Shown piece by piece: positions 11,237 to 61,270 of a stretch of 64,000 nt of DNA. Every line of letters begins with the position of its first letter. The first letter of the stretch is position 1. A program made the position numbers and the translations under genes. The stretch is taken from NCBI GenBank assembly GCA_022711115.1, contig JAKLFP010000010.1:14330-78329 (forward strand), read 5' to 3'. The notes beneath the pieces were generated by a model, which was given only the letters and a program-made list of their open reading frames with translations, searched no databases and was not told the origin of the DNA. Source of the stretch: Candidatus Omnitrophota bacterium. GTDB taxonomy: Bacteria > Omnitrophota > Omnitrophia > Omnitrophales > Aquincolibacteriaceae.

Positions 11237-11253
11237 AAAGATCCTACAATTAT

Positions 11254-25381: not shown

Positions 25382-25400
25382 AAAATTGTCCGGCATTGTG

Positions 25401-25436: not shown

Positions 25437-25716
25437 TTGACTGCTTGTAACTTTGAGAAAGTGTCTAGATTAGAACAATATCATTCTTACTAATACCAAT
25501 ATGGAATTTAAAAACACGATAATGCGATTTGGAAGTGTCCTTTATCCAGTTAAGCGTCGATGCGGATAGAGCCAATAATGAGCATAGGTGAGGAATTGCA
25601 AAGCATGGTTTCTTTATCTAGCTTATGTCAATGTGAATAAATTTAAGCTGTCAACTAGTAAAAACAATCAAAATGTGTTATTATTCTTATAGGCCTTTAT
25701 ATAAAAGGGGTGGAAT

Positions 25717-26127: not shown

Positions 26128-26163
26128 AGTTTGAGAGGCTTCTTTCAGTTAAAAGAGGACCCT

Positions 26164-43691: not shown

Positions 43692-46157
43692 ATGACAAAC
43701 ATCATGCATGTTTTTGAACTCAACTTCTATGCCGTGCCCCTTGTCGTGGTCGGGCTTCTGATGTTTCTGACCGGGCTTTACATTTTTCTCCACAACAAAC
43801 ACTCCCGCGCGAACTTCTCCTTTTTCCTGATCTGCCTTTGCGGTCTTTTTTGGTTTTTCGGAAATGCCGCGACCTATTCGGCGCGCACGCCGGAAGCCGC
43901 GCTCGCTTTTTACAGGGCGGTCACGTTTTTGGGCGTGGCCCTGATCGCGCCCTGTGTTTATTATTTTTCCGCAAGCTGGTTGAATCTTTTTGATAAGCAA
44001 AAGGCCGGCGTGCGGACCGCGCTTTTCTTGGGGGCTGCTTTTTATATTGTAGGGCTTTTTTCTCCAAGAAGTTTCCCCGGCGTCCGGCATTATTTTTGGG
44101 GCTACTATCCGGTCTATGGGCCGCTGAATTACTATTTTCTCGGCTATTTTTATCTGGTGCTGGCCAATGCGTTCTATAATTTTTTCAGGGCCTATTTCAA
44201 AGAACCGCGGGGTGTTCGCCGTACCCAGATCCGATTGATCACGCTCAGCTTTGTGGTGGCCTTTTTCAGCTCGCTTGATTATCTGCCGAAGCTGCTCTCT
44301 TATCCGGTTTATCCGCTGGGTTTTCTCCTCGTCTTTTTGTGGATCCTGATCGTGGCCTACGCCATCATCAAATACAGGGCCATGGATATCGAAACCGTGG
44401 TCCACAAGACCTTGATGTGGCTGGCCACCTCGGCGGTGGCGGTGGTGCCGTTCCTGGCAGTGATCTACGGGTTTGAAAAGATCCGGAATCCTTCCTCGAA
44501 CTTGCTTTCGACACTTTATTATTTTACGGTTTCGATCGCTTTTTATTTTTATTTCCGGGCCATCCAGCCGCGGCTGGACCATTGGTTCCAGCGCCGGCGC
44601 ACGAACCTGCTGGCGATTCTTGAGCAATTCTCCAAGGAGCTCGTGCATTTGAAGAACCTGCGCGACCTTCTGCAAAACTTCGCCCGCATGCTCCGGAACA
44701 AACTTTTTGTCCGCAGGCTTTCGGTCTACCTGTTGGATGAGAAAAAAGGGGAGTTTGTTCCCGCGATCGCCAAGGGGCTGCGCAGCTTAAAACCCTTTCC
44801 CAAGGGGCATCCCTTTTTTTCGTGGCTCGAGAAAACGGATGCCGTGGTGGTTGGGGAACTTGTGCTGGCGGATCCCTCCGTCGAAACGTTCAAAAAAGAA
44901 TTAGAAGATTATTTTCAGGCAACCCAATCCTTTTTAAGCGTGCCCTTTGTGCTCGGCGGGAAATTGATCGCCCTAGCGAACCTCGGCAAAAAAGCAAATC
45001 TGCGCCGGTATGGTTTTGAAGAAGTCCAATTTTTCGCCAAACTGAAAGCGCCGCTTACCATTGCCTTTTCGAATTCCATGCAGTTTGAGAATATTTCCGA
45101 ACTTTACAACCAGGTCCGCAAGATGAGCGAAGAACTGAAGCAATGGAACATCGAGCTGGAACAGCGCGTGGAAGATCGGACGCGCGAGTTGGTGAAAACC
45201 CAGGACCAGCTAGTGCAGGCCGAAAAACTCGCGACGCTCGGCACGCTTGCCGGCGGCGTGGCGCATGAGATCAACAATCCCTTGACGGCAGTTCTGACCA
45301 ACGCGCAGATCCTCAAAATGACGGCGGACGAAGATGTCCGGGAATCGCTGGACCTGATCGAGGAGGGCGCGAAGCGGTGCCAGCAGATCGTCCAAAAGCT
45401 CATGAAATACGCGCGTAAGACCGCGGAAGAGGCGCCGCACAAGGAAGTGGATCTGAATGAAGTGGTGCAAGGGACGTGCGCGCTTCTGGGGTTTCAATTT
45501 CAGCAAGAGAATATCGAGATTGAGACCAAGCTGGGCCAGATCCGCCGCGTGATGGGAATCGGCAATGAGCTGGAGCAGGTGCTTACGAACCTTCTTGTGA
45601 ACGCCCGGGATGCCATTAAGTCCAATCCTCAATCAAAAGATTTAAAGGTTAATGGGACTAGTCCTGGCAACCTTCAGTCAGAAGAAGATAGATGCCAGGG
45701 CAAATCCCATTCTCCATCAAAAGATTTAAAGGTTAATGGGACTAGTCCTGGCAACCTTCAGTCAGAAGAAGATAGATGCCAGGGCAAATCCCATTCTCCA
45801 TCAAAAGATTTAAAGGTTAATGGGACTAGCCCTGGCAACCTTCAGTCAGAAGAAGATAGATGCCAGGGCAAGTCTGCAAGAAGCCAAGGCCGGATTGTGG
45901 TCGAAACCCGCGGGAAGGGAGCCATGGTGGAACTTGTGGTCACGGACAACGGCATCGGTATTCCCAAAGGAAACCTCAAAAAGATCTTCGATCCCTTTTT
46001 TACGACCAAAGAGGTCGGTTCCGGTACTGGGTTGGGGCTTGCGGTCAGTTACGGCATCCTGAAGCGGCATAATGCTTCCGTGAGCGTTGATTCTTCGCCC
46101 GGCAAAGGTACTACCTTTGTGCTTTGCTTTCCCCGAAAGCAACAAGGTGAATCATGA
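43692..46157 (+). CDS. sensor histidine kinase (7TM N-terminal sensor, GAF-like, HisKA, HATPase_c) carrying an in-frame 3x28-aa repeat insertion
   Basis: 7 TM helices N-terminally; H-box [13 protein letters not shown]; N-box [10 protein letters not shown]; G-boxes DNGIGIP and GSGTGLGL. Three copies of [28 protein letters not shown] lie between the N box and G1 box. Confidence 0.85.
45633..45884 (+). repeat. 3 x 84-bp near-perfect in-frame tandem repeat inside the kinase ATP-binding domain
   Basis: Units start at about 45633, 45717 and 45801. A single T/C difference (actagtcct vs actagccct) separates copy 3 from copies 1-2. Confidence 0.9.
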
Positions 46158-46199: not shown

Positions 46200-46255
46200 T
46201 TAAAAATTCAAAGGTTAATTGGACTAGCCCTGGTGACCTTCAGTTAGATGAAAAA
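46200..46255 (+). repeat. diverged partial copy of the 84-bp repeat unit in the intergenic region
   Basis: caaaggttaattggactagccctggtgaccttcagttagatg aligns to the intragenic unit aaaggttaatgggactagtcctggcaaccttcagtcagaag at about 80 percent identity. Confidence 0.6.
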
Positions 46256-46319
46256 AAACAGGGGCATAACACTACCTTCACGCTCCGGTTTCCTGCGGCT
46301 CATTCATCCACCCAAAAGT

Positions 46320-47807
46320 ATGAATCCGTATAATTTTTCCATTTTGTGCTTTGGTTTTTGTTCCCTCCTCTTGGGACTTTTTGTCTGGCTCAAACGGCAG
46401 GATCGTGTCGGCCAATTGTATTTTGTGTTGTCTTTTTTTTATGCTGGTTGGGCGCTGCCATTTTCTATAAAAATCAGTGATAATATTTCCTATGCTGCGG
46501 CGTTATACGCAGCACGCATGGCGAATTGTTCCGCGGCATTTATCCCAACTGTTTGGCTTCATTTTTGTTTGGTTTATACCAAAAGAGATGAAACCCATAA
46601 AAAAATACTTAAACTTTTTTACGCAATACCGCTGCTCATTCTTGCTGTTTCTTTTACACCGTGGTTTGTCCCGGGGCTCAGACCTATTCTCAGTTTTAGA
46701 CACTATGCAACCCCGGGTATTTTTTATTATTTGATGACATTGAATTATTTTATAGTTATTCCGCTGGGCTTTAACCAGTTATTTGACAAGATGAAAGAGG
46801 TTTCAAGAGAAGAAAGGGAACAACTTTTAGGACTTTTTTTCTCGGCCTTTATTGGCTATTTGGGAGGCGCCTTAACTTTTTTGCCGATCTATGGCATTTC
46901 ATTCCCTCAAGAAGGTATGTTTCTGTTGCCGATTTATCCCTTTGCTCTGACGTACTTTATGATTAAGCAGAAGATCTTCGACATCGAGGAGTTGGCCCAG
47001 GCGGCTCATCGGGACAAGTTAACAGCGATCGGGGTTTTGGCGGCGAGCATCAATCATGAGATCAAAAATCCGCTTTTTATTATCAAGGGACTCGCGGAGA
47101 ATTGTCTGGAGCGGCAAAAGGAAGGTGTTTTTTCCAATAAAGAAAAAGCCCTGGAGAGCGCCAACGACGCGATGAAAAGGAGCGTCGAGCAAGCGGACCG
47201 GGCGATGGATATCATCCGTAGGTTGTCGCTTTTTGCCAAGGCCGGGATCGACAGTGAGATCAAATTCGAGTTTGTGAAGATCGCGGAAGTGCTTGAAAAT
47301 ATTTTGCCGCTGATCCGTTATGAACTAGCAGCGAAAAATATCGTACTGACCCGTGACATTCCGCCCAATATTCCCGAAGTCCGCGCGGACCGGCGTTATC
47401 TTGAGGAGATTCTTTTCAACCTGCTAGTGAATGCCTGCCAGGCTGTCAGGGAAACCGGACGGGAAGGGGAGATCAAAGTGACCGCGGCCGTCATTGCGAG
47501 GGAACGAAGCGACCGAAGCAATCTCCCAATTCCGGACCTTAATAAAACGGGATCGCTGCGGCCCAAAAATGGCCTCGTGATGACAACTCCTGACAAGGTC
47601 CTTATCACGATCCAGGACAACGGCCCCGGGATCCCTGAAGATAAAATCAAAGACGTTTTCCGCCCCTTTTACACCACCAAAGCCGAGGGCACCGGTCTAG
47701 GTCTTTACATCACCAAACAGCTTGTTGAAAAAATCGGTGGACGGATATCTGTTGAGTCCCAGCAAGGCATTGGCACGACTTTTAAAGTTATCCTGAAGGC
47801 AGCCTGA
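46320..47807 (+). CDS. sensor histidine kinase (7TM N-terminal sensor, HisKA, HATPase_c), paralog
   Basis: Start set at MNPYNFSILCFGF by analogy with the next paralog. H-box LAASINHEIKNPL; G-boxes DNGPGIP and GTGLGLYI. Confidence 0.85.
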   Translation: MNPYNFSILCFGFCSLLLGLFVWLKRQDRVGQLYFVLSFFYAGWALPFSIKISDNISYAAALYAARMANCSAAFIPTVWLHFCLVYTKRDETHKKILKLFYAIPLLILAVSFTPWFVPGLRPILSFRHYATPGIFYYLMTLNYFIVIPLGFNQLFDKMKEVSREEREQLLGLFFSAFIGYLGGALTFLPIYGISFPQEGMFLLPIYPFALTYFMIKQKIFDIEELAQAAHRDKLTAIGVLAASINHEIKNPLFIIKGLAENCLERQKEGVFSNKEKALESANDAMKRSVEQADRAMDIIRRLSLFAKAGIDSEIKFEFVKIAEVLENILPLIRYELAAKNIVLTRDIPPNIPEVRADRRYLEEILFNLLVNACQAVRETGREGEIKVTAAVIARERSDRSNLPIPDLNKTGSLRPKNGLVMTTPDKVLITIQDNGPGIPEDKIKDVFRPFYTTKAEGTGLGLYITKQLVEKIGGRISVESQQGIGTTFKVILKAA

Positions 47808-47810
47808 GCC

Positions 47811-49187
47811 ATGAATCCGTATAACTTCTCAGTCCTGTGTTTCGGTTTTTGCAGTTTGCTTCTCGGAATTTTCGTTTGGCTTAAGCGGCAAGATTATGTT
47901 GGGCGACTTTATTTTGCTTTATCCTTTTTTTATGCTGGTTGGGCAATTTTTATATCGATTAATCTTAATAATGACATTTCGCCGGACCTCGGTCTTCTTA
48001 TGGGGCGATTAGGGAATGGCTTTGCTATTTTTATTTCCATTATTTGGTATCATTTTGTTTTGGTTTATACAGGATTTATTGAAAAACATTACAAGTTGGT
48101 GAAGTTTTTTTACATCATCTCGATACTAACATTTTGTTTTGTGTTTTCACCTTGGTTTATTCCAAAGACAGCAACTATAGTTGGTTTTAAGCATTACTCG
48201 CAAGCTGGACCAATCCATTATTTTTTTTCATTCTTATTTTTCATTCTAGTCACACTAAGTTTTATTGAATTGCACCGGAAAATAAAGAACTCTTTCGGAT
48301 ATGAAAGAGCGCAATTCAAAGGACTTTTTTGGACAGCCCTTTTGGGGTATCTCGGAGGGAGTCCGGCTTTTCTTCCGATTTATGGGATTCCCATGCCCCA
48401 ATATTGTCTCTTTTTAATGCCCCTTTATCCATTCATGTTGGCTTACTTCATGACCAAACAAAAACTCTTCGATGTGGCGGAATTGGCCCAAGCGGCGCAT
48501 AGGGATAAACTTTCGGCAATTGGTTTATTGGCAGCCAGTATAAATCACGAGGTCAAAAATCCATTATTTGTCATTAAAGGCATGACAGAAACACAGTTGG
48601 AACGTTTGCATGACCCGACGCAGTCAACAGAAAAGTTAAGAGAAATGCTAGAAAAAACCCTTCAGCAGGCGGATCGGGCGCTTGGAATTATTCGAAGCTT
48701 TTCTGAGTATGCAAAAAGGCAAAGCTCGCGAACATTCGATAAACAAATGCTCGATATTCGAGAAGTTATTGACAATATTATTCCGTTTGTGCGCAGCGAG
48801 TTGGCTTTGGACTCTATTCACCTAGAGTTGAATATACCGGCAAAAACCATGATCTGTGCGGACCAGCAATCCATGGAAGAAATCTTTCTGAATTTAATCG
48901 TGAATGCCTGCCAGGCGATAAAAAGCACTAATAAAACGGGTGAGATTGAGATTTCATCAGAGAAAGAAGATCCGTGGATCAGGATTGCAGTGCGAGATAC
49001 CGGGCCGGGATTGTCACAGGATCAGCTTTCAAGGATCTTTGAGCCATTTTACACAACAAAAGTATCAGGGACAGGCCTTGGACTTTATGTGGTCAAGCAG
49101 CTTGTCGAGAAAAATCAAGGCAGGATTGAGGTAGTTTCAAAGATCGGCGTTGGGACCACCTTTACCCTTATCTTTTCGCAACACTAG
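47811..49187 (+). CDS. sensor histidine kinase (7TM N-terminal sensor, HisKA, HATPase_c), tandem paralog
   Basis: MNPYNFSVLCFGFCSLLLGIFVWLKRQ is almost identical to the N-terminus of the preceding gene. H-box LAASINHEVKNPL. Noticeably lower GC than the upstream paralog. Confidence 0.85.
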   Translation: MNPYNFSVLCFGFCSLLLGIFVWLKRQDYVGRLYFALSFFYAGWAIFISINLNNDISPDLGLLMGRLGNGFAIFISIIWYHFVLVYTGFIEKHYKLVKFFYIISILTFCFVFSPWFIPKTATIVGFKHYSQAGPIHYFFSFLFFILVTLSFIELHRKIKNSFGYERAQFKGLFWTALLGYLGGSPAFLPIYGIPMPQYCLFLMPLYPFMLAYFMTKQKLFDVAELAQAAHRDKLSAIGLLAASINHEVKNPLFVIKGMTETQLERLHDPTQSTEKLREMLEKTLQQADRALGIIRSFSEYAKRQSSRTFDKQMLDIREVIDNIIPFVRSELALDSIHLELNIPAKTMICADQQSMEEIFLNLIVNACQAIKSTNKTGEIEISSEKEDPWIRIAVRDTGPGLSQDQLSRIFEPFYTTKVSGTGLGLYVVKQLVEKNQGRIEVVSKIGVGTTFTLIFSQH

Positions 49188-49352
49188 TTAATTCAATGGG
49201 TTATAGGACTTTTCTTTAAGGGATGGCTCTATTTAGCCGATATAACACTAGTGAGTTTTGTTTAATTTGGTGTGCTGACGATACAATCAACAAGAGAAGT
49301 TATTTAACATTTCGTTTAAAAAACCTTTGATAAATTACAATTTAAAAACAAT

Positions 49353-50180
49353 ATGTTGTTCGAAAATATGAAAACAGCCATAGAGGATTTTTTTTATAAA
49401 AAAGTTATTCGCAATATATTAATGCTCAGCAATTTTGGGCGACGTAGCGTTTTAGGAGAAGCTGCTTCGGGTTATAATTTTGACTATATGTATGAAAATA
49501 AACCGCACGGTTTTTTAGGAATAGGATATTTAATTGATAAAATGTTGCTTAATTTACCAGCTGTTCAAGCAACCAGACTCCGGCGTGTAAATATTGTCAA
49601 AATTGTAAGCAACGAGATCGAAAACCATAGGTTACAAGGAAAAACAACGAAAATTTTAGATTTAGCATGTGGCGCAGGCCGATATCTGTCAGATATTGTA
49701 AAGATTTTTTCCAAGAATAAGATAGAGATTGTAGGAATTGATTACGATAATAAATCATTAAAATTAGCTAAAAATCTCAGTGAAAAAGAAGGTATCTCAA
49801 AGGAACAAATCAGATTTGTTAAAGGGAATGTCTTTAGGCTGAGTATTCTAAAAAAATTGGGAAAACGAGTTGATTGGCGACCTAACATTGTTATTGCATC
49901 AGGGCTGACCGTTTATATTGATGATGATGAAGTGATAAATATGCTAAAACAAATTTATGAAGGGTTAGCTCACGATGGATGCATATTAATCGATAGCCAG
50001 GAAAGCAATCCAAGTCGCAAGTTGATGGAAAAGGTTTTAAAGACCAAGCAAGGAGCTTGGATTCTTTACTATAGGTCTCCAGCACAATGGCGGCATTGGT
50101 TACATAAATGTGGGTTCAGAGATATCGTTATTAGTTGTGATCAATGGAAAATGTACAACCTATGTTCAGCGCGAAAATGA
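49353..50180 (+). CDS. class I SAM-dependent methyltransferase
   Basis: Motif I ILDLACGAGRYL plus downstream acidic and IASG motifs. Low-GC gene. Confidence 0.7.
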   Translation: MLFENMKTAIEDFFYKKVIRNILMLSNFGRRSVLGEAASGYNFDYMYENKPHGFLGIGYLIDKMLLNLPAVQATRLRRVNIVKIVSNEIENHRLQGKTTKILDLACGAGRYLSDIVKIFSKNKIEIVGIDYDNKSLKLAKNLSEKEGISKEQIRFVKGNVFRLSILKKLGKRVDWRPNIVIASGLTVYIDDDEVINMLKQIYEGLAHDGCILIDSQESNPSRKLMEKVLKTKQGAWILYYRSPAQWRHWLHKCGFRDIVISCDQWKMYNLCSARK

Positions 50181-50554
50181 TGGCAGTATCAAAACCAACA
50201 ATTTTATTAATAGATGATGATCAATTGGTGTTGCGCTCCTTGGCAAAAGCCTTGGAAAAGGCTGGTTATAATGTGTTAGCAGTAGATGGGTACGATACAG
50301 CGATGGCTGCCATTCATGATAAAAATTTTGACTTAGTTTTGTCGGATATTCGTATGCCAGGAAAGAACGGTGTTGATACTGCGAAAGAAATCCAAGATAG
50401 TTTAATTGCAAATGGTAAGAAAGATTTACCGATTATATTTATAACGGGCTATAGTGGCGATGAAGAAAAGTTGCAGACGCCTTTATTGGGAGAAACATTA
50501 TACAAACCTGTAGATATAAATCGTTTACTAACTATAATTCGGGATTATCTATGA
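50177..50554 (+). CDS. single-domain response regulator (CheY-like receiver)
   Basis: ILLIDDDQLVLRSL...LVLSDIRMPGKNG...K. Start moved to the ATG overlapping the methyltransferase stop (ATGA). Confidence 0.8.
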   Translation: MMAVSKPTILLIDDDQLVLRSLAKALEKAGYNVLAVDGYDTAMAAIHDKNFDLVLSDIRMPGKNGVDTAKEIQDSLIANGKKDLPIIFITGYSGDEEKLQTPLLGETLYKPVDINRLLTIIRDYL

Positions 50555-51798
50555 AAAATCGGGTTGCTGTTACAGGAATAGGCATTGTGAGTCCCATCGG
50601 AATTGGGATTGATAATTTTTGGAAGGCGACAATTTCTGGTGAATCTGGAGCAGGAGAAATTACATTATTTGACGCGTGTAATTATGCTACAAAAATTGCG
50701 GCAGAAGTGAAGAATTTTAATCCAGCGGACTTTATGCTTCCGGAAGTTTACAGAAAAACTGATAGGTTTGCTCAATTTGGAGTTGCTGCTGCAAAAATGG
50801 CTATTGAGGAATCAAGATTAGAAGGAGCTTATGATCTGCAACAGAATCGCATACCAGTTATTATTGGCTCAGGGTTAGGTGGAAGTTTATTTCATGAGGA
50901 ACAAATTTTTCAATTGATTGGGACTCAAGAGCCAAAAAAAGTGCTTTCGAGCTCTGTTCCCCGAATTACTCCAAATGCCGTATCAGCGTTTATTGCCATG
51001 CAATATAAATTTCGCGGAACTAATTTGACTATTTCAACGGCATGTTCTTCAGCAGGGAATGCGATTGCCTTGGCTGCCCAACAGATTGAAAATGGAAAAA
51101 CGGATATTGTGATTACAGGGGGAGTAGAATGTCCCATAACCCCCTTTACTTATGCAGCCTATCAATCTCTTCGGGTATTATCAAAGGGCTTACAAGGGGC
51201 CAAGAAGGCGTCTCGGCCGTTTGATAAAAAAAGAGATGGCTTTGTGTTAGGAGAAGGTGCTGGCATTTTAGTGTTGGAGAACTATGAAAAAGCGTGTTCA
51301 AGAAAAGCTATTATTCATGCCGAACTAAAAGGTTATGGAAGTAATTGTGGCGCTTTTCATATGGCTGCACCTGATCCTAGTGGAGCAGATGCAGCCGCAG
51401 TTATGCGTGAAGCTATAATGCATGCTGGGATTTCAACAGTAGAAATTGACTATATTAATGCACATGGGACAGCTACTCAAGCGAATGATGTATGTGAAGC
51501 AAAAGCTATTAATATGGTTTTTGAAGAAGGTGGGAAAAAACCTTTTGTTAGTAGCACAAAATCTCAAATAGGTCATACGATAGGAGGTGCAGGAGCAATA
51601 GGTGCTATTGCGGCTATTTTGGCTGTCAAAAATGATATTATTCCTCCTAATATTAATTGTGATGAGTTAGATGACCAATGCAATATTAATGTGGTTCAAG
51701 AAAAAGCGTTGCACGCTCGTACGATCAATGCCATTTCAAATTCTTTTGGTTTCGGATCTAATAATACGGCCTTAGTTTTTGGAAAAGCGGAATACTAA
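50551..51798 (+). CDS. beta-ketoacyl-ACP synthase II-like condensing enzyme (KAS, FabF/FabB type)
   Basis: Active-site TACSS Cys, plus His motifs NAHGTAT and GHTIGGAGA; 415 aa. Confidence 0.88.
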   Translation: MKNRVAVTGIGIVSPIGIGIDNFWKATISGESGAGEITLFDACNYATKIAAEVKNFNPADFMLPEVYRKTDRFAQFGVAAAKMAIEESRLEGAYDLQQNRIPVIIGSGLGGSLFHEEQIFQLIGTQEPKKVLSSSVPRITPNAVSAFIAMQYKFRGTNLTISTACSSAGNAIALAAQQIENGKTDIVITGGVECPITPFTYAAYQSLRVLSKGLQGAKKASRPFDKKRDGFVLGEGAGILVLENYEKACSRKAIIHAELKGYGSNCGAFHMAAPDPSGADAAAVMREAIMHAGISTVEIDYINAHGTATQANDVCEAKAINMVFEEGGKKPFVSSTKSQIGHTIGGAGAIGAIAAILAVKNDIIPPNINCDELDDQCNINVVQEKALHARTINAISNSFGFGSNNTALVFGKAEY

Positions 51799-51826
51799 AA
51801 TCATGAATGTGAAGGGAGTTACGATT

Positions 51827-52108
51827 ATGACGGATTCACTGCAAAGAAAAGAAATTTTACAAAGACTGGAAAAAATTTTTAGTAACCTTTTGCGATCAAT
51901 GCAGGAAAAAGATCTTAAAAAGCGTCCTATTATTTCTTTTGATACTGACATAGCAAAGGATCTTTCAATTGATTCTGTAGAAACACTCGATTTACTCAAT
52001 AGCATAGAAGAGGAATTTGAAGTGAGTCCTGATTTACATGTAGCTAACACAAAGCGGAAAGTCGGCCAGATTGTTGATTACATAATAGAATTGCAAGAGC
52101 AAAAATAA
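51827..52108 (+). CDS. acyl carrier protein (dedicated, ACP-like)
   Basis: DLSIDSVETLDLLNSIEEEF phosphopantetheine-attachment Ser in a DSxE context. Start chosen at the ATG preceded by a GAAGGGAG RBS. Confidence 0.7.
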   Translation: MTDSLQRKEILQRLEKIFSNLLRSMQEKDLKKRPIISFDTDIAKDLSIDSVETLDLLNSIEEEFEVSPDLHVANTKRKVGQIVDYIIELQEQK

Positions 52109-52131
52109 ATTTTGTTAAATGAGAAAATAAA

Positions 52132-52911
52132 ATGGCTATTAATAAAAAAGTTGAAGAAGAGAATAAGATTTGGATATTAGAAATCGATAATCCTCCGATG
52201 AATAATTTAAATCCTGTTGTGGTCGACGGACTTAGTCGAGAAATTAAAAGTTTTAATGAAGATGCTGTCGCTCGTTCAATGGTCATAACAGGGGCTGGTG
52301 AAAGAGTGTTTATCGGTGGGGTAGCGATTGAGGAGATTAGGAAAATAAAGTCTTCAGATCAAGGGATGATTCTAGCGAAAAAAGGACAAGAATTATGTAA
52401 TCAGATAGAAAATTCCGAAAAACCTATTATTGCAGCTGTAAATGCCCTGTGCATTGGTGGAGGGACAGAAATCCTTTTGGCTTGCCATCTCCGTGTGGCT
52501 TCCGAGAAAACAAAATTTGGTCAACCAGAAATTGCGATGGGTTTTATGCCTGGTTTTGGTGGGACTCAACGATTGCCACGTGTAGTTGGAATTTCACAAG
52601 CGCGTCGCCTTATTTTATTGGGGGAAACTATCGACGCTCAAGAAGCATATCGAATAGGGTTAATTGATTTTCTTGTTTCTAAAGAAAAACTGCTATCAAC
52701 AGCTATGAATCTGGCCAAAAAAATAGCTGAAAAAGGACCAATAAGCATTTTAATGGCACAGCGCTCTATTCAAAAAGGCTATCAAATGAATTTAAAAGAC
52801 GGTCTTGATTTGGAACTGAAGTTATTCGGAGAGCTTTGCAAAACTGAAGACATGAAAGAAGGATTACAGTCTTTTATTGATCATCGAAAAGCTATTTTTA
52901 AGGGACGATAA
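52132..52911 (+). CDS. enoyl-CoA hydratase/isomerase (crotonase) family protein
   Basis: Crotonase oxyanion-hole region ALCIGGGTEILLACHLRVA and FGQPEIAMGFMPGFGGTQRL; 259 aa. Confidence 0.85.
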   Translation: MAINKKVEEENKIWILEIDNPPMNNLNPVVVDGLSREIKSFNEDAVARSMVITGAGERVFIGGVAIEEIRKIKSSDQGMILAKKGQELCNQIENSEKPIIAAVNALCIGGGTEILLACHLRVASEKTKFGQPEIAMGFMPGFGGTQRLPRVVGISQARRLILLGETIDAQEAYRIGLIDFLVSKEKLLSTAMNLAKKIAEKGPISILMAQRSIQKGYQMNLKDGLDLELKLFGELCKTEDMKEGLQSFIDHRKAIFKGR

Positions 52912-52917
52912 AATCTG

Positions 52918-53541
52918 ATGATAAGTGGAGTAATCTGCTTTGGTGATAGTATTTTAGCTGGGACAGGAGCATCATTTCGCGATAAAGGATGTGCCAAGCT
53001 ATTGAAGGCAAGATTAAAAATACCAGTCTCTTTGAAAGGAATTAATCGTAATACCAGCCAAGATGGTTTAATTCGCTTACAGCAAGATGTGCTAGACCAG
53101 AAGAATTTATCTCATGTGATAATCCTTTTTGGGAATAATGATTGTCGTTTTGTAGATTCTAACCGCTTTTCTGTTTCCCAAGATCATTTTATTGAAAATC
53201 TCAAAGAAATGGCCGCTAGCATTAAACGCAACCATCAAATCCCCATGTTTTGTAATTTACAGCCAATAGATTTTCCAATGCTATTTCAATTCATGCCGGA
53301 AGTTCAAAAAATTTATAGTGAAAACAAAATAAACCCCGAAGAACTTCAAGGGACATATAGTGATTTGATTGAAAATTTTGCTAAGAAGAGCGCCGAAATC
53401 TTAATCGATATTAGAACTCCATTAAAATGTAAAAAAAATGAAATTTTGGCAAAAGATGGACTGCATCCCAATGATTATGGCCATGAGATAATTGCGCAAA
53501 AGATTTTCGCTGAATTAAAAAAATACGATTCTACAATTTAA
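52918..53541 (+). CDS. SGNH/GDSL hydrolase (TesA-like thioesterase/lipase family)
   Basis: N-terminal block I ICFGDSILAG (catalytic Ser) and C-terminal DGLHPN block (catalytic Asp/His); 207 aa. Confidence 0.75.
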   Translation: MISGVICFGDSILAGTGASFRDKGCAKLLKARLKIPVSLKGINRNTSQDGLIRLQQDVLDQKNLSHVIILFGNNDCRFVDSNRFSVSQDHFIENLKEMAASIKRNHQIPMFCNLQPIDFPMLFQFMPEVQKIYSENKINPEELQGTYSDLIENFAKKSAEILIDIRTPLKCKKNEILAKDGLHPNDYGHEIIAQKIFAELKKYDSTI

Positions 53542-53577
53542 CTTTTGATTTATAACGAAACTCAGGAAAGCATCTCA

Positions 53578-55875
53578 ATGGCATTCTATATCCTGATAAC
53601 GGGACTTATTACCGCATCATATGCAGGCCTGGGCCTTTTCGTTTTTTTAAATGATCGAAGGAAATTTCTTTTTCGAATTTTTTTGTTATTTTGTTTGTCC
53701 GTCGCCTTATGGGCGTTTGGATATTTTATAACTCTCTTATCTCATATTACTTATCCAGTCGCAATTTTATCTAGCCGTATTTCGCATGCCATTGGGGCTT
53801 TTATTCCGATTACCTTTTTGCACTTTGTCTTGTCGTTTCTTCGCATTGATACTAATCATCGCCGACTTTTGCAAAACGGTTATATTGTATCCACAATTAT
53901 GTTCGGCATTGCACTAACACCATATGTGGTAAGCGATGTGGTGCAAAAGATGGATATTCGATTTTATCCCGAAAAAGGGTTATTTTATCCAATATATGCG
54001 GCGCTTTATTTGGTTTATGCGCTTGGATTTGCTCAGTTTTATCTATTTAAATCTTTTTTGAGCGCTACCGGAATTAATAAAAAGCGACTTCTTTTCTTTA
54101 TAGTTTCAACATTTGTAGGTTTTATCGGTGGTGTTTCGCTTTTCTTGCTAATATTTAATATTCCTGTTCCTCCTTATGCTAGTTCACTTATTGTAATTTG
54201 GCCATTTGCAATGGCGTATACGATTATTAAATATCGCGAATTTAATATAGAAGTTATTATTAAAAGGACATTGGTTTTTACTGGAGTTTTTGGTTCAATC
54301 ATTGGCATTGTTGCTATTGTGACAACACTTGCTCAAAATTATTTGGGGCAATATCTTGGTATAGGGCTGTTGGCGCGACAGATTTTTAGTGTTTTGATTG
54401 CCATCTTGCTTTTTGATCCGATTCGAAAACTGCTGATTAATCTCACGGACAAATACCTTTTTCAGAAAAAGTACGACTACCACAAGCTGCTCAAGGACGC
54501 GTCGCGGGGGATGTCGAACATCGAGAGCCTGGAGCGGTTGCTGGGTCTGGTCGTGCACTTCGTGACCATGAAGATGCGCGTGAAGAACGCGGCGGTGTTG
54601 ATGCGGGAAGGGGGCATGGATCAGTTTCATCTGGTGTATCAGCGCGGGTACGATAAAAAACACGTTGCCCTGACGCTCTACAGTAATGACCCGCTGATCC
54701 ATTACCTGGAGAATCATCAGGAGGCCGTGGACATCGAAAGGGTGAAAGAACAAGTCGAATCCGCCTCCCACCAGCGCGACAGAAGCGAGGTCGCGTATGA
54801 TTATGAAGCGATTCGCGAACGGATGATCCAGTTGCAGGCCAGCTGTTGCGTGCCGAGTTTTTTGGGCAAGGAGCTCAAGAATGTTCTTCTGCTCGGCGAA
54901 AAAAAATCCGGCGAATATTATTCCAACGAAGACCTGAATCTGCTTTACACGCTGGCGCAGGAATCCGCGATTGCGATCGAGAATGCCTGGCTTTATGATG
55001 AGGCCAAGAAAAAATCCCGAGAACTCGAACACATCAATGAGCAATTGGAACATTCCAAAACGCTTTTGATGAAAGCCTTGCAAGAAGCCGAAGGCGCGAA
55101 CAAACAGCTTCAGGACACACAGGCACAGTTGATCCACGAGCAGAAAATGGCGACCCTGGGCCGTCTGGCCGCGTCCGTGGGGCATGAAGTCAACAACCCA
55201 CTGACCATTCTGTCCATGAACGTGTCGCGCGTGATCCTCAAGTACCGGAAAAACCCGGATATGAAAGTGATCGAGATCCTGGATGTTTTTGACAAGATGG
55301 AAAAAAATATCGAGCGCATCAAAGCCGTGGTGAACACACTGACCGGGCTCCTCAAGAAATCCGAAAAAGGAAAATTCGAACCGCTGTCGCTCAAGCTGAT
55401 CCTGGAAGAAACCCTGCCGCTCGTGCAGTTCCAGACCTATCTGGACAATCTTTCGGGCACGGAAGTGGATTTCAACGTGCCGGGCAATATCCCGCTTATT
55501 CGCGGCGATCTGGAGCGTTTGCAGGAGGTATTTCTCAATCTTTTCATCAATGCCTATCATGCCATGGCCGGGAAGCGGCACCGCAAGATCGCGGTGGCTG
55601 CCGAGATCGACCCGCAGGACTCAAAGATGGTGGCGATCCATTTCAGGGACAACGGTTCGGGCATGACCGAAGATGTCATCAAAAAGGTCTTCAATTACGG
55701 TTTCACCACCAAACCGCTAGGCAAAGGATCAGGGCTCGGCCTGTATATGTGCAAGTACATCATTGAGCTTCACGGCGGGACGATTGTGGTGCAAAGCAAA
55801 GTCGGGGAGGGGACGACGTTCACGCTGACGCTGCCGATCTACGAGGAGTCTCCGGCGCTGAAGGCGCGAAGCTAG
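53578..55875 (+). CDS. sensor histidine kinase (7TM N-terminal sensor, GAF-like, HisKA, HATPase_c); compositionally chimeric
   Basis: ATG at 53578 with an AGGAAAG RBS; the ORF-track start at 53545 is a TTG. H-box LAASVGHEVNNPL; G-boxes DNGSGM and GSGLGLYM. GC jumps from about 35 to about 60 percent near nt 54450. Confidence 0.85.
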   Translation: MAFYILITGLITASYAGLGLFVFLNDRRKFLFRIFLLFCLSVALWAFGYFITLLSHITYPVAILSSRISHAIGAFIPITFLHFVLSFLRIDTNHRRLLQNGYIVSTIMFGIALTPYVVSDVVQKMDIRFYPEKGLFYPIYAALYLVYALGFAQFYLFKSFLSATGINKKRLLFFIVSTFVGFIGGVSLFLLIFNIPVPPYASSLIVIWPFAMAYTIIKYREFNIEVIIKRTLVFTGVFGSIIGIVAIVTTLAQNYLGQYLGIGLLARQIFSVLIAILLFDPIRKLLINLTDKYLFQKKYDYHKLLKDASRGMSNIESLERLLGLVVHFVTMKMRVKNAAVLMREGGMDQFHLVYQRGYDKKHVALTLYSNDPLIHYLENHQEAVDIERVKEQVESASHQRDRSEVAYDYEAIRERMIQLQASCCVPSFLGKELKNVLLLGEKKSGEYYSNEDLNLLYTLAQESAIAIENAWLYDEAKKKSRELEHINEQLEHSKTLLMKALQEAEGANKQLQDTQAQLIHEQKMATLGRLAASVGHEVNNPLTILSMNVSRVILKYRKNPDMKVIEILDVFDKMEKNIERIKAVVNTLTGLLKKSEKGKFEPLSLKLILEETLPLVQFQTYLDNLSGTEVDFNVPGNIPLIRGDLERLQEVFLNLFINAYHAMAGKRHRKIAVAAEIDPQDSKMVAIHFRDNGSGMTEDVIKKVFNYGFTTKPLGKGSGLGLYMCKYIIELHGGTIVVQSKVGEGTTFTLTLPIYEESPALKARS

Positions 55876-56104: not shown

Positions 56105-56386
56105 ATGTCAAAAAAAGGTTATGTTTATATTTTATCGAACTCTTCCAATACAGTTTTATATACCGGGGTAACATCAGATCTTTGGGCGCGAGTGGGTGAG
56201 CATAAACAAAAGTTAGTGAAGGGATTCACAAAACGGTATAATGTTACTAAGCTTGTCTGGTTTGAAGAATTTGGATCGATTCATGAGGCAATTGCGTCAG
56301 AAAAGAAAATAAAAGCAGGATCCAGAGCTAAAAAAATAAAATTGATTAAAACTCTGAATCCTGAATTTAGAGATTTAGCATTATAG
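56105..56386 (+). CDS. small GIY-YIG nuclease-domain protein (YhbQ/UPF0213-like)
   Basis: KGYVYIL...LYTGVT...FTKRYNVTKLVWFEEF is a GIY-YIG core; 93 aa. Confidence 0.8.
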   Translation: MSKKGYVYILSNSSNTVLYTGVTSDLWARVGEHKQKLVKGFTKRYNVTKLVWFEEFGSIHEAIASEKKIKAGSRAKKIKLIKTLNPEFRDLAL

Positions 56387-56479: not shown

Positions 56480-56836
56480 ATGAAAAAAATACTGATTGTG
56501 GATGATGAAGTCGGGATCGTGCAGGAGATCAAGGAATTCCTGACCGAAGAAGGCTATGACGCTTATACGGCGGATACAGCCAAGGAAGGGATCCGTCTGA
56601 TCCAGGAATTGAAACCGGATGTGGTTTTTATTGATGTGAAACTGCCGGATGCGTCCGGGATCGACGTGCTGAAGGCGTGTAAGGAAGAGTCTCCCAGAAC
56701 CAAGACCGTCATGGTGACGGGCTATGTGGATCAGAATTTGATGGATGAGGCCGAAGCGGTCGGGCGTGACGCGTTTCTTCAAAAACCTTTTGACCTTGTC
56801 CGCATCACCGAAGAAATCGAACGGTTGCTTGGCTAG
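56480..56836 (+). CDS. single-domain response regulator (CheY-like receiver)
   Basis: ILIVDDEVGIV...VVFIDVKLPDASG...K; 118 aa. Confidence 0.85.
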   Translation: MKKILIVDDEVGIVQEIKEFLTEEGYDAYTADTAKEGIRLIQELKPDVVFIDVKLPDASGIDVLKACKEESPRTKTVMVTGYVDQNLMDEAEAVGRDAFLQKPFDLVRITEEIERLLG

Positions 56837-56929
56837 ACTATAGGCCATCACTATAGACTGGAGACGGCAGACTGAGGCATGTCATCGCGAGCGAAGCGTG
56901 GCGATCTCCTGGCTATCGAAGTCGGTAAA

Positions 56930-57208
56930 ATGAAAAAAGGTTATGTCTATATTTTAGCAACTCCCTCCAACAAAGTTCTTTATACGGGCGTTACCGCAGA
57001 TCTTTGGGATAGGGTGACTCAACATAAAGACAAAACGGTCGAAGGGTTCACAAAACGTTACAACGTTACCAAATTGGTTTATTTTGAAGAATTCACATCC
57101 ATCATGGATGCGATCTCAGCGGAGAAAAAAATAAAAGCTGGATCCAGAGCTAAAAAAATAGAGTTGATTAAAACATTGAATCCTGCATTTAAGGATCTAG
57201 CGCAATAA
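56930..57208 (+). CDS. small GIY-YIG nuclease-domain protein (YhbQ/UPF0213-like), paralog
   Basis: MKKGYVYILATPSNKVLYTGVTADLW...FTKRYNVTKLVYFEEF. Start moved to the internal ATG to match its paralog. Confidence 0.8.
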   Translation: MKKGYVYILATPSNKVLYTGVTADLWDRVTQHKDKTVEGFTKRYNVTKLVYFEEFTSIMDAISAEKKIKAGSRAKKIELIKTLNPAFKDLAQ

Positions 57209-58921: not shown

Positions 58922-61270
58922 ATGTTCCGACAGATTGCAGAATTTATCTACCATTTTCGCTGGCCCGTTTTTCTGGCCATGATCCTCAGCCTTTTTTTTG
59001 CCGGCATCGCGCTTTCCCATCTGACGGTGGATCCCTCCATGGAGCCGCTTTTCATCAAAAAATCTCCCGAATACAAGTATTATCAGGAATACCGCCAGAA
59101 ATACGGCAGCGACCAGATGATCGCCGTTGCAATGTCGACGAGCGACCTGTTCACGGAACCGAACCTCAAGGTGCTCAAGAACATTACGGAAGGCATTTCA
59201 AGCTACGAACAAGTAGAACGTGTCATGAGTCTCGCGAACATTCAGGACATCAAGCATAAAGGGCTCGGGGTCAAGATGGTCCCGGCGCTTCAGGGGGTTT
59301 TTGAGAAAGAAAGGACGTTTGAAGAGGCTAAAAGGGACATCCTCCGCAATGAACTTTATCTCAATAACCTGGTTTCCAAGGACGGGAAGATCGCCAATGT
59401 CCTGGTCTATCTGAAGCCGGCGGAAAAGGATTCCGTGACCGGTGATATTTTTATTGAAAAACTCAAAGATTATCTCAATGATTTTGAGCGGCCGGACCTG
59501 AAATTCTACATGGCCGGGGCGCCGGTTGAACAATATGAATTTATCAGGCTGATCCAACGCGACCAGCTTGTTTTTGTGCCTATGATCGCTTTGGTCCTGA
59601 TCGTGATGACCTTCTGGATCTACCGGAGTTTTACGTGCATGATCCTTTCGATGTCGATCGTTTTTATAACCCTTCTCTGGACGCTTGGGACCATCGCGGG
59701 TTTGGGGCAGCAACTCAATCTGATGACGTCGCTTCTCGCGCCCGTGATCATGATTGTCTCGGTGATCAATTCGACCTACCTGATCAATCTCTTTTTTGAG
59801 ATCCGTCCGCATCACACGAGCCTTAAAGAATCCGTGATCCGGACCATCGAACAACTCGGCTTGCCGTGTTTTCTGACGCATTTTACGGCGATTCTGGGGT
59901 TCGGATCGCTCGCTTTGAATCCGATCCCCGCCATCCAGAGTTTCGGGATTTTTGCCGCGCTCGGGACGTTTTATTCTTACATCGTGGAGATCATCATGAC
60001 CACGCTGTTGCTGCCGATCTTGCCATACCGGCCGCTGAAAGTGGATCTGCGCAGCGATCGGCACTTTTTTAACCGGGTTTTTCTTGGGTTTCTCGAGAAA
60101 TTCGAATACCGGTGGAGGTGGTGGATCCTGATCACCACTTTTCTTGTGCTTGTTTTTTCCCTCGAGGGGATCCGGAAGATCGAAGTGGACACGAACATCG
60201 TCAAGCAGATGAAGCCGGACCTGCCGCTGGCGGTCGCGACCAAATTTATCGATGATCGTCTTACGGGCGTCTATTCCCTCGGATTTGTTTTCCGGCGCAA
60301 GGACGGTGAGAGCATGGTGGATTACAAGGCCCTGACCCTCCTGGATCAATTCAAAACCTATCTTGAGAAAGAGCCGGGGATCGCGAAGGTCAACAGCATC
60401 ACCACGCTTATCAAAAAGATCAATGAAGCCCGCAAGGACGATCCTGACGCCTATCTCATTCCCGATAAATCCATTCTTCTCAAGCTCTATTTTAAAGGGA
60501 TGGTGGCTTCCGAGGACCCGGAGCTTTATAAAATGATCTCCCCGAATTTTAAAGAGATCCGGATGGAGGCGCGGATGCGCGCGATCGGAACCACGCAGGG
60601 AGCTTTATTAGAAGAACGGGTCCGTGAATATCTGGAAAGGAATCTGAGCGGTTTCTTCGAGTATAAGTTGACGGGCAATGTGGTGCTGCTTGGAAAGATC
60701 GCCAAGAGTCTTGTGCATGAGCAGACACGAAGTTTTTTGTTTGCCTTTATTTCGATTCTGATCGTGATTGTCTTGATCTTCCGTTCGATCCGTTTGGGTC
60801 TTTTGGCGGCCATCCCGAATGTTTTTCCGATTCTGGCGGTCTATGGGATCATGGGGTTTGCCGGGATCGAGCTTTCGACCGCGACGGCCATGATCGCGAG
60901 CATCGTCTTGGGTCTGGTGGTGGATGCCTCGATCCAGTTCCTGTACCGGTTTCGCAAGGAATTCCAGCACCGTTCGCATTATATCCAGTCCCTGCATCAT
61001 ACTTACCGCAATATGGGGCTGTCTATGGTCGTTTCGACGCTGATCCTTTGTCTTGGTTTCGCTTCGAGCGTGTTCGCCAGTTTTCGCATCACGGTTCATT
61101 TCGGAGCCCTGACGAGCCTGACGATCTTTTTGGCGCTCTTGTGTTCGCTTTTGGTGCTTCCGGTGTTTTTGACCATGGTCAAACCCTTCGGCCCGCAGCG
61201 GCTTTTTAAGCGAAAGGTTTCGGGCAAGGAATCTATTTCGGAGCATGCGGGGCCGGTGAAGGACGTTTAG
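58922..61270 (+). CDS. MMPL/RND-superfamily exporter (two 6-TM bundles with periplasmic domains; HpnN-like architecture)
   Basis: 782 aa with 12 predicted TM helices in a 1+5 / 1+5 arrangement; RND/MMPL-like TM4 region. Confidence 0.75.
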   Translation: MFRQIAEFIYHFRWPVFLAMILSLFFAGIALSHLTVDPSMEPLFIKKSPEYKYYQEYRQKYGSDQMIAVAMSTSDLFTEPNLKVLKNITEGISSYEQVERVMSLANIQDIKHKGLGVKMVPALQGVFEKERTFEEAKRDILRNELYLNNLVSKDGKIANVLVYLKPAEKDSVTGDIFIEKLKDYLNDFERPDLKFYMAGAPVEQYEFIRLIQRDQLVFVPMIALVLIVMTFWIYRSFTCMILSMSIVFITLLWTLGTIAGLGQQLNLMTSLLAPVIMIVSVINSTYLINLFFEIRPHHTSLKESVIRTIEQLGLPCFLTHFTAILGFGSLALNPIPAIQSFGIFAALGTFYSYIVEIIMTTLLLPILPYRPLKVDLRSDRHFFNRVFLGFLEKFEYRWRWWILITTFLVLVFSLEGIRKIEVDTNIVKQMKPDLPLAVATKFIDDRLTGVYSLGFVFRRKDGESMVDYKALTLLDQFKTYLEKEPGIAKVNSITTLIKKINEARKDDPDAYLIPDKSILLKLYFKGMVASEDPELYKMISPNFKEIRMEARMRAIGTTQGALLEERVREYLERNLSGFFEYKLTGNVVLLGKIAKSLVHEQTRSFLFAFISILIVIVLIFRSIRLGLLAAIPNVFPILAVYGIMGFAGIELSTATAMIASIVLGLVVDASIQFLYRFRKEFQHRSHYIQSLHHTYRNMGLSMVVSTLILCLGFASSVFASFRITVHFGALTSLTIFLALLCSLLVLPVFLTMVKPFGPQRLFKRKVSGKESISEHAGPVKDV

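Follow-up and report, generated by a model that had tools for sequence, protein, structure and literature searches.

What a run of AT-rich genes for lipid enzymes is doing immediately upstream of a membrane histidine kinase is the question raised by a locus in a 64,000-nt stretch of DNA from a Candidatus Omnitrophota bacterium (contig JAKLFP010000010.1, positions 14,330 to 78,329), referred to here as the window. Six genes of this locus (the cassette) encode an S-adenosylmethionine (SAM)-dependent methyltransferase, a receiver, a beta-ketoacyl-acyl carrier protein synthase (KAS), an acyl carrier protein (ACP), a crotonase-family enzyme and an SGNH hydrolase, and they are followed by the gene for a kinase of the seven-transmembrane (7TM) sensor type, HK4, and by a second receiver gene, RR2. 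We found that the enzymes, the cassette's receiver and the membrane sensor region of HK4 behave in evolution as one block, passed on and swapped together, while the kinase core and the output receiver to which they are joined are conserved. The locus is best read as a chassis, formed by the cytoplasmic GAF-HisKA-ATPase core of HK4 together with RR2, that carries an exchangeable unit consisting of a YnbC-like methyltransferase, a serine hydrolase, a receiver, the HK4 membrane region and, in the window, the KAS, ACP and crotonase. We hold with about even confidence the full reading, in which this exchangeable unit on its fixed chassis would provide a lipid product and its matched receptor by the mechanism set out below; the chemistry, the role of the product as kinase ligand, the phosphotransfer wiring and any action between cells are parts of it that we infer.

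The original prediction had assigned the six cassette genes from the sequence, and Pfam matches bore out the family of each (domains were scored against Pfam gathering cut-offs and NCBIfam models, alongside sequence searches of the PDB and AlphaFold2 (AF2) models). All six lie on the + strand, as do the kinase, RR2, reductase-like and transporter genes described below. The methyltransferase (49353-50180) matched Methyltransf_20 (PF12147) at 115.2 bits (cut-off 21; profile positions 41-309). The receiver (50177-50554; Response_reg, 75 bits), a single-domain response regulator hereafter called the module receiver, has a start that overlaps the methyltransferase stop codon (ATGATG) and an end that overlaps the KAS start. 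The KAS (50551-51798; ketoacyl-synt N-terminal domain 170 bits, C-terminal domain 124 bits) resembles beta-ketoacyl-ACP synthase II and scored 464.5 bits against the FabF equivalog model TIGR03150 (cut-off 493.75) and 460 bits against PRK07314 (cut-off 387). We describe it from these scores as FabF-like and do not claim identity with housekeeping FabF. Residues C165, H305, K337 and H342 were invariant across 10 orthologues, and the Cys/His/His triad (C165/H305/H342) is thus as intact as had been proposed. The attachment serine proposed for the ACP (51827-52108; 93 aa; PP-binding, 31 bits) is likewise present, in a DSVE motif; this protein scored 40.5 bits against TIGR00517 (under the cut-off of 70) and is 70% identical to the 93-aa ACP of locus L001 (L numbers denote the comparison set of about 50 related loci, nearly all from Omnitrophota).

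The remaining two enzymes had been likened to RpfF and TesA. Paired catalytic glutamates are common to all enoyl hydratases, and the crotonase (52132-52911; ECH_1, 199 bits), predicted to be an enoyl hydratase/dehydratase or isomerase, has such a pair (E113/E133) as well as G109/G110, all invariant in its orthologues. Its best PDB match was a short-chain enoyl-CoA hydratase (5z7r, 189 bits), with 5wyb, which we take to be P. aeruginosa DspI, at 120 bits; it scored 238 bits against NCBIfam PRK05809, under the equivalog cut-off, and no entry named RpfF or diffusible signal factor (DSF) synthase occurred among its best 60 PDB or best 25 NCBIfam matches. The analogy to RpfF is therefore weak, since the nearest relatives are ordinary hydratases and the glutamates are shared by all of them. 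The hydrolase (52918-53541; Lipase_GDSL_2, PF13472, 70.5 bits against a cut-off of 32.9) scored only 22.4 bits against the NCBIfam TesA model NF007819 (cut-off 270), no TesA chain was found among its PDB sequence matches (best match 3p94), and it has no signal peptide, the GDS motif beginning at residue 9. Residues S11, G72, N73 and D75, which include the catalytic S11/N73/D75, were invariant across 16 orthologues. We consequently dropped the TesA assignment; to judge from these features the protein is a generic, predicted cytoplasmic SGNH/GDSL serine hydrolase, either an esterase or a thioesterase.

HK4 (53545-55875; 776 aa) starts 3 nt after the stop codon of the SGNH gene and has 7TM, GAF, HisKA and HATPase domains. 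Hydropathy placed about nine hydrophobic helices with short loops in its membrane sensor region (53545-54444; about 300 residues), which matched HisKA_7TM (PF16927) at 41.1 bits; three further kinases of the window, HK1, HK2 and HK3, also exceeded the cut-off of 28.6 (59.0, 61.0 and 34.7 bits). The AF2 model of this region had a predicted local distance difference test (pLDDT) score of 86, an extracytoplasmic domain is absent, and a fold search with the model returned only weak, generic matches to seven-helix G-protein-coupled receptors (E at least 0.01; template-modelling (TM) score 0.3-0.46). The cytoplasmic GAF-HisKA-HATPase core (54445-55875) is of native composition, with HATPase_c at 82 bits (82-90 bits over the four kinases); its HisKA match (21.4 bits) is under the cut-off of 26.9, and the H-box HEVNNPL is present. 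RR2 (56480-56836; Response_reg, 91 bits), a single-domain receiver and the likely output partner of HK4, is 77-80% identical to its orthologues in L001 and L018. The surroundings differ here from what had been proposed, namely one orphan 7TM kinase on each side of the cassette: three such kinases lie upstream (HK1, 43692-46157; HK2, 46248-47807; HK3, 47811-49187) and one downstream, and receivers are encoded both inside the cassette and at RR2.

The AT-rich stretch reported at about 49.2-54.45 kb was confirmed when composition and codon positions were checked. The island (49188-54444 on the + strand; 5257 nt) runs from the spacer behind HK3 through all six cassette genes and ~900 nt into the HK4 gene, and its guanine-plus-cytosine (GC) content is 36.2% against 46.8% in the rest of the window (45.9% for the whole window; windows of 5257 nt elsewhere, mean 46.5%, sd 2.0, minimum 41.9%; island z = -5.2). 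At third codon positions, GC (GC3) was 0.255-0.307 in the six cassette genes and averaged 0.496 (sd 0.078) in the 39 other open reading frames (ORFs) (Mann-Whitney p = 8.6e-5). Within the HK4 gene, GC3 was 0.16-0.40 over the first 900 nt, stepped to 0.90/0.70 at about nt 54445 and stayed at 0.56-0.90 through the cytoplasmic core, such that the step coincides with the boundary between the membrane and cytoplasmic domains. An internal step at this same boundary of the kinase was also seen in L018 and L007. A codon effect of hydrophobic proteins was rejected as the source of the low GC3 because the native membrane genes of the window, the membrane region of HK1 and a transporter gene of the MMPL family, have GC3 values of 0.54-0.76. 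Integrase genes, tRNA genes and direct repeats bounding the island were looked for and not found; the boundary search returned a single weak 26-nt inverted repeat (49003/55393; 81% complementary), which was taken as a chance match. A scan for promoter and terminator consensus sequences gave 37 sites against 27.6 expected, and the 165-nt spacer that precedes the methyltransferase gene contained no such site.

To compare related loci, maps were made by phmmer with the window proteins and a few locus proteins and by Pfam assignment of the contigs. We detected 106 homologues of the methyltransferase, almost all from metagenomes and almost all from Omnitrophota; a scan of one genome per species gave 43 methyltransferase loci, mostly from Omnitrophota (Omnitrophica) or unclassified, and the closest named relatives were all Omnitrophota. 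The homologues by themselves make an Omnitrophota chromosome the almost certain source of the window. A 7TM kinase gene on the same strand started less than 7 kb downstream of the methyltransferase in every non-redundant locus with at least 5 kb of sequence there (23/23 loci), and this linkage persisted over 40-79% divergence. A hydrolase gene was near the methyltransferase in 31 of 35 loci, as was a receiver gene (31/35). The conserved core is thus a methyltransferase, a serine hydrolase and a receiver, with a 7TM kinase of ~680-800 aa immediately downstream; the kinase gene is usually followed by another receiver, often by a protein with two receiver domains (REC-REC) and a divergent helix-turn-helix (HTH)-cupin gene.

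Around this core the cassettes fall into types. Type A adds the KAS, ACP and crotonase and has an SGNH hydrolase (window, L001, L003, L007, L011-L014, L034, L053, L055), and type S consists of the methyltransferase and SGNH hydrolase only. The commonest is type B, which encodes an alpha/beta hydrolase (Hydrolase_4) that frequently bears a receiver at its C-terminus. At 10 of 14 loci of the hydrolase-only type, fewer than 20 nt separate the stop of the methyltransferase from the start of the kinase. Types A and B coexist within some genomes, at separate loci. Genes for the KAS, ACP and crotonase are confined to one subclade and are dispensable in most related loci, so that of the proposed co-occurrence of six genes with a 7TM kinase it is the linkage of the core that stood, and not that of all six. 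Because this linkage held in 23 of 23 loci, a functional coupling of the cassette to the adjacent 7TM kinase is supported.

The closest comparison is provided by L018 and L038, which share the window's gene order: an acyl-ACP-reductase-like gene, HK1, short kinases, cassette, HK4 core, RR2 and RmlC, with the MMPL gene completing the shared neighbourhood in L018. At this one syntenic site, L018 and L038 have a type B cassette, and the window and L001 have type A. Between the window and L001 (A vs A), the HK4 membrane region (residues 1-280) is 80% identical, the core (last 440 aa) 89% and the MMPL protein 76%; between the window and L018 (A vs B), the core is again 89% identical and the MMPL protein 78%, whereas the membrane region falls to 32%. 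In blocks of 50 residues, identity of HK4 between the window and L018 was 24, 26, 24, 26, 38 and 58% over blocks 1-6 and 90, 78, 78, 88, 100, 96, 98, 90, 84 and 76% over the later blocks. The switch lies just past the last membrane helix, at the point where GC3 jumps in the window. RmlC and RR2 were ~77-83% identical in both comparisons. By their flanking genes, the window and L001 are no closer kin than the window and L018, and L001 and L018 resemble one another (MMPL 85%) more than either resembles the window. Cassette type therefore cuts across flank phylogeny, since L001 is nearer to L018 by its flanks yet carries a cassette of the window's type.

A second, independent case was found in L013 (type A) and L027/L009 (type B), all three with a FadL-type gene upstream: between the types, the membrane regions are 16-26% identical and the cores 60-94%, while L027 and L009 (both B) are 60-70% identical in the membrane region. 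Assembly chimeras were rejected as a source of these mosaics because the same mosaic ORFs recur intact in independent assemblies (L001, L002, L010; L053). A cluster of 99%-identical methyltransferases was present on four contigs. In L005, two tandem kinases (5937-8135 and 10804-13032), each adjoining a different methyltransferase, were 100% identical across their final ~430 residues and 26-44% across the initial 300, a pattern that suggests a recent gene conversion or duplication confined to the core.

Neighbour-joining trees gave the same division. Membrane regions of the downstream kinases formed clades by cassette type, with type S sister to type A, and the methyltransferase tree also sorted by type. 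The core tree, built from the last 250 residues of the kinases, contained a tight clade in which A and B were mixed (window, L001 and L013 with L018, L038, L009, L027, L021 and L028). Module receivers, including those fused to the type B hydrolase, formed one clade sorted by type, and receivers like RR2 formed a separate clade sorted by genome. Across 23 loci, methyltransferase identity was correlated with membrane-region identity (Mantel test; Spearman rho 0.53, permutation p = 5e-4) and hardly with core identity (rho 0.15, p = 0.06). The sensor thus co-varies with the cassette and the core does not, which fits what is predicted for a synthase/receptor pair.

These results also bear on how the unit moves. 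Exchange of the unit between genomes is supported because the type is swapped at a syntenic site, because compositional breakpoints lie within genes and because the methyltransferase of L054 is beside an IS3-type transposase, in a region of defence genes. This part of the earlier proposal of horizontal acquisition finds support in the swap in L018/L038; the low GC content is no evidence of a recent event. In L053, GC3 is low too, including at the start of HK4 (0.27-0.37 vs 0.62), and the proteins are 76-86% identical to those of the window in flank and cassette alike, for which reason recent acquisition was rejected as the sole explanation of the low GC content. Cassette and flanks diverge in parallel among the window, L053 and L001, and L001 has no compositional anomaly. 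Either low-GC versions have been re-introduced repeatedly or AT-richness is maintained in this accessory unit.

An accessory fatty-acid or secondary-lipid operon might instead have been inserted horizontally into a kinase-rich region with no functional link to the kinases. The sharp difference in composition from the flanks, the transposase in L054 and the many paralogous kinases of the window would all be expected of such an insertion. It would leave unexplained the downstream kinase found in 23 of 23 loci over 40-79% divergence, the 3 nt between the SGNH stop and HK4 start, the co-variation of sensor, methyltransferase and module receiver, and breakpoints of composition and phylogeny that fall inside the kinase at a domain boundary. 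We give this explanation hardly any weight.

How a matched product and receptor might arise can be outlined from the gene content. With the dedicated ACP as carrier and with reductases lent by primary fatty-acid synthesis, the KAS, ACP and crotonase would modify a fatty-acyl chain; the changes might be an extra elongation and, by the crotonase, either a 2,3-dehydration or a FabM-like isomerisation. The SGNH hydrolase would free the acid from its carrier, and the methyltransferase would turn it into a neutral methyl ester or methylate a related lipid carboxylate. Such a hydrophobic product would partition into membranes and be read there by the matched membrane region of HK4. HK4 might then phosphorylate RR2, which would carry the output, and also the module receiver, through which feedback would reach the hydrolase. 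Control of the hydrolase by the module receiver is suggested by the receiver-hydrolase fusions of type B, whose receivers belong to the same clade.

That the substrate of the methyltransferase is a lipid or other small molecule, and not a protein, is suggested by its fold and its relatives. The AF2 model (pLDDT 91) is nearest to 3ocj, an uncharacterised Bordetella protein (TM 0.71), and then to the small-molecule enzymes SibL, RedM, DsyB, SgvM and ChlM; these are not protein methyltransferases. By sequence, a PDB search with the window protein gave only a marginal match, to 2-ketoarginine methyltransferase (E ~1e-4), and one with a canonical Methyltransf_20 member gave zero matches. In BLASTP, E. 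coli YnbC aligned with the window protein through its C-terminal Methyltransf_20 domain (26% identity over 239 aa; E = 4e-26). Family members without a nearby kinase occur in lipid operons (YnbC; L040, L044, L045). Fusions of Hydrolase_4 to Methyltransf_20 were found in Planctomycetota and Verrucomicrobiota, and a PilZ-Methyltransf_20-Hydrolase_4 fusion in L036 (from a genome titled 'uncultured Elusimicrobia sp.'); we argue from the pairing of hydrolase and methyltransferase in one chain that the two enzymes act successively on one lipid-type substrate. Other fusions join Methyltransf_20 to a FabK-like NMO domain (L043) or to an N-terminal PilZ domain (L016, L030), PilZ being a domain that binds cyclic di-GMP. 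Lipid or small-molecule chemistry is also favoured by the catalytically intact KAS, ACP and crotonase and by the FadL-type porin gene that adjoins several loci.

A methyltransferase beside a membrane kinase and a hydrolase that is fused to or associated with a receiver does recall CheR and CheB, and the methyltransferase could accordingly methylate the kinase or another protein, with the receiver-controlled hydrolase demethylating it for adaptation. In CheB, as for the hydrolase in many related loci, an esterase is under the control of a fused receiver. A pairing of methyltransferase and serine esterase is found in BioC and BioH as well: BioC methylates malonyl-ACP for elongation by the enzymes of fatty-acid synthesis, BioH later removes the ester, and the scheme above would also use a KAS and an ACP. 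However, the window methyltransferase scored under the cut-offs of both models (CheR, 20.6 bits against 27; BioC TIGR02072, 26 bits against 185), chemoreceptor and biotin genes are absent, and the hydrolases are SGNH or Hydrolase_4 enzymes, not CheB. A fold closest to small-molecule O-, C- and S-methyltransferases, kinase-free relatives in lipid operons and the hydrolase-methyltransferase fusions all argue against protein methylation, which moreover would leave the KAS, ACP and crotonase with no role. Adaptation of the CheR/CheB kind is in our view very improbable.

The context of YnbC raises a different alternative. YnbC is annotated as a 'bifunctional alpha/beta hydrolase/class I SAM-dependent methyltransferase', and its N-terminal Hydrolase_4 domain is of the same Pfam family as the type B hydrolase (a weak match, E = 6e-4), its C-terminal domain being the homologue of the window methyltransferase. 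In the ynb operon (L056, E. coli NZ_CP141085.1, 1545-6125), ynbC follows ynbA, encoding a CDP-alcohol phosphatidyltransferase, and ynbB, and precedes ynbD (a PAP2 phosphatase); YnbB is a CdsA paralogue implicated in synthesis of the MPIase glycolipid (PMC6362211). Unlike the loci described here, ynbC has no adjacent kinase; the window hydrolase is an unrelated SGNH enzyme, and its pair is tied to a two-component system. The enzymes could on this precedent modify the cell's own lipids, with the kinase's membrane region sensing those lipids or the state of the membrane that they bring about and the receivers tuning the enzymes, in a self-directed homeostasis or remodelling of the membrane from which nothing is released.

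DesK, which senses membrane fluidity, offers a model for such a homeostat: like HK4 it is polytopic and lacks an extracytoplasmic domain, and its gene accompanies that of a lipid-modifying enzyme. Its regulator (DesR) binds DNA and sets the transcription of a desaturase, in contrast to the receiver-only regulators and other enzymes found here, and in these loci the sensor region is exchanged together with the enzymes. Homeostasis would sit well with the homology to YnbC and its phospholipid/glycolipid operon, with the PlsC-type acyltransferase and HAD genes that the L003/L004 unit contains and the PlsC genes beside the distant members L041 and L045, and with receivers fused to or encoded with the hydrolase, whose enzyme activity would then be the output of phosphorylation. 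It is harder to reconcile with alternative cassettes and matched sensors at one syntenic site in close relatives, and with both types in single genomes, a polymorphism that is characteristic of signal/receptor pairs undergoing diversification more than of a homeostat with a housekeeping role; the accessory-gene composition of the unit and the FadL-type porin gene beside several loci also speak against it. We consider homeostasis unlikely, though by no means negligible.

Those porin genes lend themselves to one further explanation. In L009, L013, L025 and L027 the unit is immediately preceded by a Toluene_X/FadL gene, and L038 has one nearby; an exogenous hydrophobic compound, such as a lipid or ester of a host or prey, might be imported through the porin, detected by the membrane region and detoxified or assimilated by the esterase and methyltransferase. 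The hydrolases are generic esterases, and co-variation of sensor and enzymes would also be expected of a catabolic pair. A condensing enzyme and a dedicated ACP are anabolic, however; the conserved unit contains no oxidative or beta-oxidation genes, CoA ligase or transporter, and no FadL gene lies beside the window cassette. The response to a foreign compound appears improbable to us.

Several observations weigh against the reading that we prefer, a matched lipid product and receptor on a constant kinase core. Two loci break the sorting by type, the L003 sensor lying outside the type A clade and the L034 methyltransferase grouping with type S. The crotonase appears to resemble ordinary CoA hydratases rather than RpfF. 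Since genes for a ketoreductase, an enoyl reductase, a malonyl transferase and a phosphopantetheinyl transferase are all missing from the cassette, it has to rely on primary fatty-acid synthesis, and the route is not the self-contained one of the original prediction. No DNA-binding response regulator is encoded in the window. The context of YnbC suggests modification of membrane lipids or glycolipids rather than a diffusible signal, the adjacent FadL-type porin is equally expected for uptake of foreign compounds, and a receiver in an enzyme operon would mean that phosphorylation regulates the enzymes, which is also compatible with their serving purely as output. The literature holds no product or experiment for any member of the Methyltransf_20 or HisKA_7TM families. 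Of the lipid synthesis-and-sensing locus originally envisaged, what is left is the coupling of enzymes to kinase, supported by linkage and co-variation, with the parallels to RpfF and TesA and the complete pathway finding no support. That the lipid acts as a signal molecule between cells is a tentative suggestion, which we think somewhat doubtful.

Among known systems, the closest in layout is the Phc system of Ralstonia (methyltransferase PhcB, sensor kinase PhcS, receivers PhcR/PhcQ), whose product, sensed by the kinase, is a 3-hydroxy fatty-acid methyl ester. The phcBSR operon holds methyltransferase, sensor kinase and receivers together, and the phylogenies of PhcB and PhcS split by signal type, independently of strain phylogeny (PMC11960443). 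Similarly, a methyltransferase gene lies upstream of a membrane kinase and receivers in our loci, an arrangement kept in all 23, and the trees of putative synthase and sensor split by type. The units described here differ from Phc in adding a serine hydrolase and a receiver of their own, and in type A the KAS, ACP and crotonase; their sensor is a HisKA_7TM kinase with about nine helices and a GAF domain, their receivers are single-domain or REC-REC, and they are found in Omnitrophota. The resemblance to DSF systems is that the gene for a polytopic sensor kinase has near it one for a crotonase whose catalytic glutamates number two, and a 2-enoic fatty acid is a conceivable intermediate. The crotonase is nearer to short-chain enoyl-CoA hydratases, though, and is absent from most related loci; HK4 is not a REC-HPt hybrid like RpfC, and there is no HD-GYP regulator like RpfG (no HD-GYP domain was found in the window genes tested by Pfam).

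In the peptide quorum-sensing loci agrBDC of staphylococci and comQXP of Bacillus, the signal genes and the membrane part of the kinase are variable, in contrast to a conserved regulator and catalytic part of the kinase. Our loci show this mosaic too (window/L001/L018, L013/L027/L009 and L005), in the trees, the correlation and the GC3 breakpoints. The signals of those systems are modified peptides, in contrast to a cassette that encodes lipid/ester enzymes only, and our types differ in gene content and not merely in sequence, with both able to coexist in one genome. The pattern is best classed as one of a known kind, a signal synthase with a membrane kinase and pherotype-like exchange, built from different enzymes in an uncultivated phylum.

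Omnitrophota are ultra-small, uncultivated and possibly host-dependent bacteria. We propose, as a possibility that we regard with some doubt, a hitherto unrecognised class of lipid autoinducers in this phylum in which the product of a YnbC-like hydrolase/methyltransferase pair, in some versions extended by a KAS, ACP and crotonase of its own (a fatty-acyl methyl ester or related lipid), would be received by the HisKA_7TM membrane domain, with synthase and receptor domain exchanged as pherotype-like cassettes on a constant kinase. A literature search found no paper mentioning 'Methyltransf_20' or 'PF12147', just two that mention 'HisKA_7TM', both of them censuses or reviews of histidine kinases in archaea (and eukaryotes), and nothing relevant that links Omnitrophota with quorum sensing. 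If the proposal is correct, a widespread uncultivated phylum would gain the first signal/receptor system put forward for it. The proposal would also provide a class of ligand for the uncharacterised HisKA_7TM sensor domain, a first function for the HisKA_7TM and Methyltransf_20/YnbC families, and a biochemical lead for the latter, which is present even in E. coli. The exchange of synthase and sensor cassettes, known from the peptide pherotypes of Firmicutes, would then operate on lipid-type chemistry in a distant phylum as well. Since the cores are 70-100% identical and the sensor regions differ, the natural chimeras define where specificity must lie, and they make the hypothesis directly testable without cultivating the organism.

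Upstream of the cassette, a gene for an SRPBCC (lipid-binding) domain fused to an acyl-ACP-reductase-like domain (41998-43581; Polyketide_cyc 73 bits; TIGR04058 168 bits, under the cut-off of 450) precedes HK1, a 7TM-GAF-HisKA-HATPase kinase by Pfam. This gene recurs just upstream of a 7TM-GAF kinase of the HK1 type in L001, L018, L036, L038, L043 and L053, and the two make up a second pair of enzyme and 7TM kinase. The membrane region of HK1 is 28-40% identical between the window and L018 and the core 84-92%. Within the ATPase domain of HK1, an 84-bp unit is repeated three times in tandem and in frame (45621-45871; 97% matches), adding 3 x 28 residues that are absent from the L001 and L018 orthologues (821 vs 740 aa); the spacer between HK1 and HK2 holds a fourth copy, 86% identical (46202-46252). 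HK2 and HK3 are short 7TM-HisKA-HATPase kinases without GAF. Such kinases occur in tandem arrays directly upstream of the cassette, with two copies in the window and up to four elsewhere (L009, 2370-7700; L027; L038, 2654-8622), and they form a clade of their own that does not sort by cassette type.

Downstream, an MMPL/HAE3 transporter of the resistance-nodulation-division (RND) family with a sterol-sensing-type domain (58922-61270; MMPL 125 bits; TIGR00921 210 bits) is a possible lipid exporter; it adjoins both cassette types (L001, L018) and so is not specific to either. RR2 has two paralogous GIY-YIG genes inserted around it (56105-56386 and 56879-57208), which the syntenic L001 lacks. The GIY-YIG genes are flanked by a short repeat that includes the 11-mer GTCATTGCGAG, which occurs five times in the window (47490, 56084, 56420, 57240 and 58514; 0.02 expected), one copy being in frame within an insertion in the ATPase domain of HK2. 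The first 41 kb of the window hold housekeeping, pilus/secretion and RND efflux genes. There, a pilus/secretion block (PilM-like, secretin, T2SSE ATPase, T2SSF) is followed by four tandem type IV pilin-like genes (24304-26589) with the N-terminal motif GFTL[VA]E[IL]LIV, and a protein with a C-terminal receiver domain is encoded at 26692-27429.

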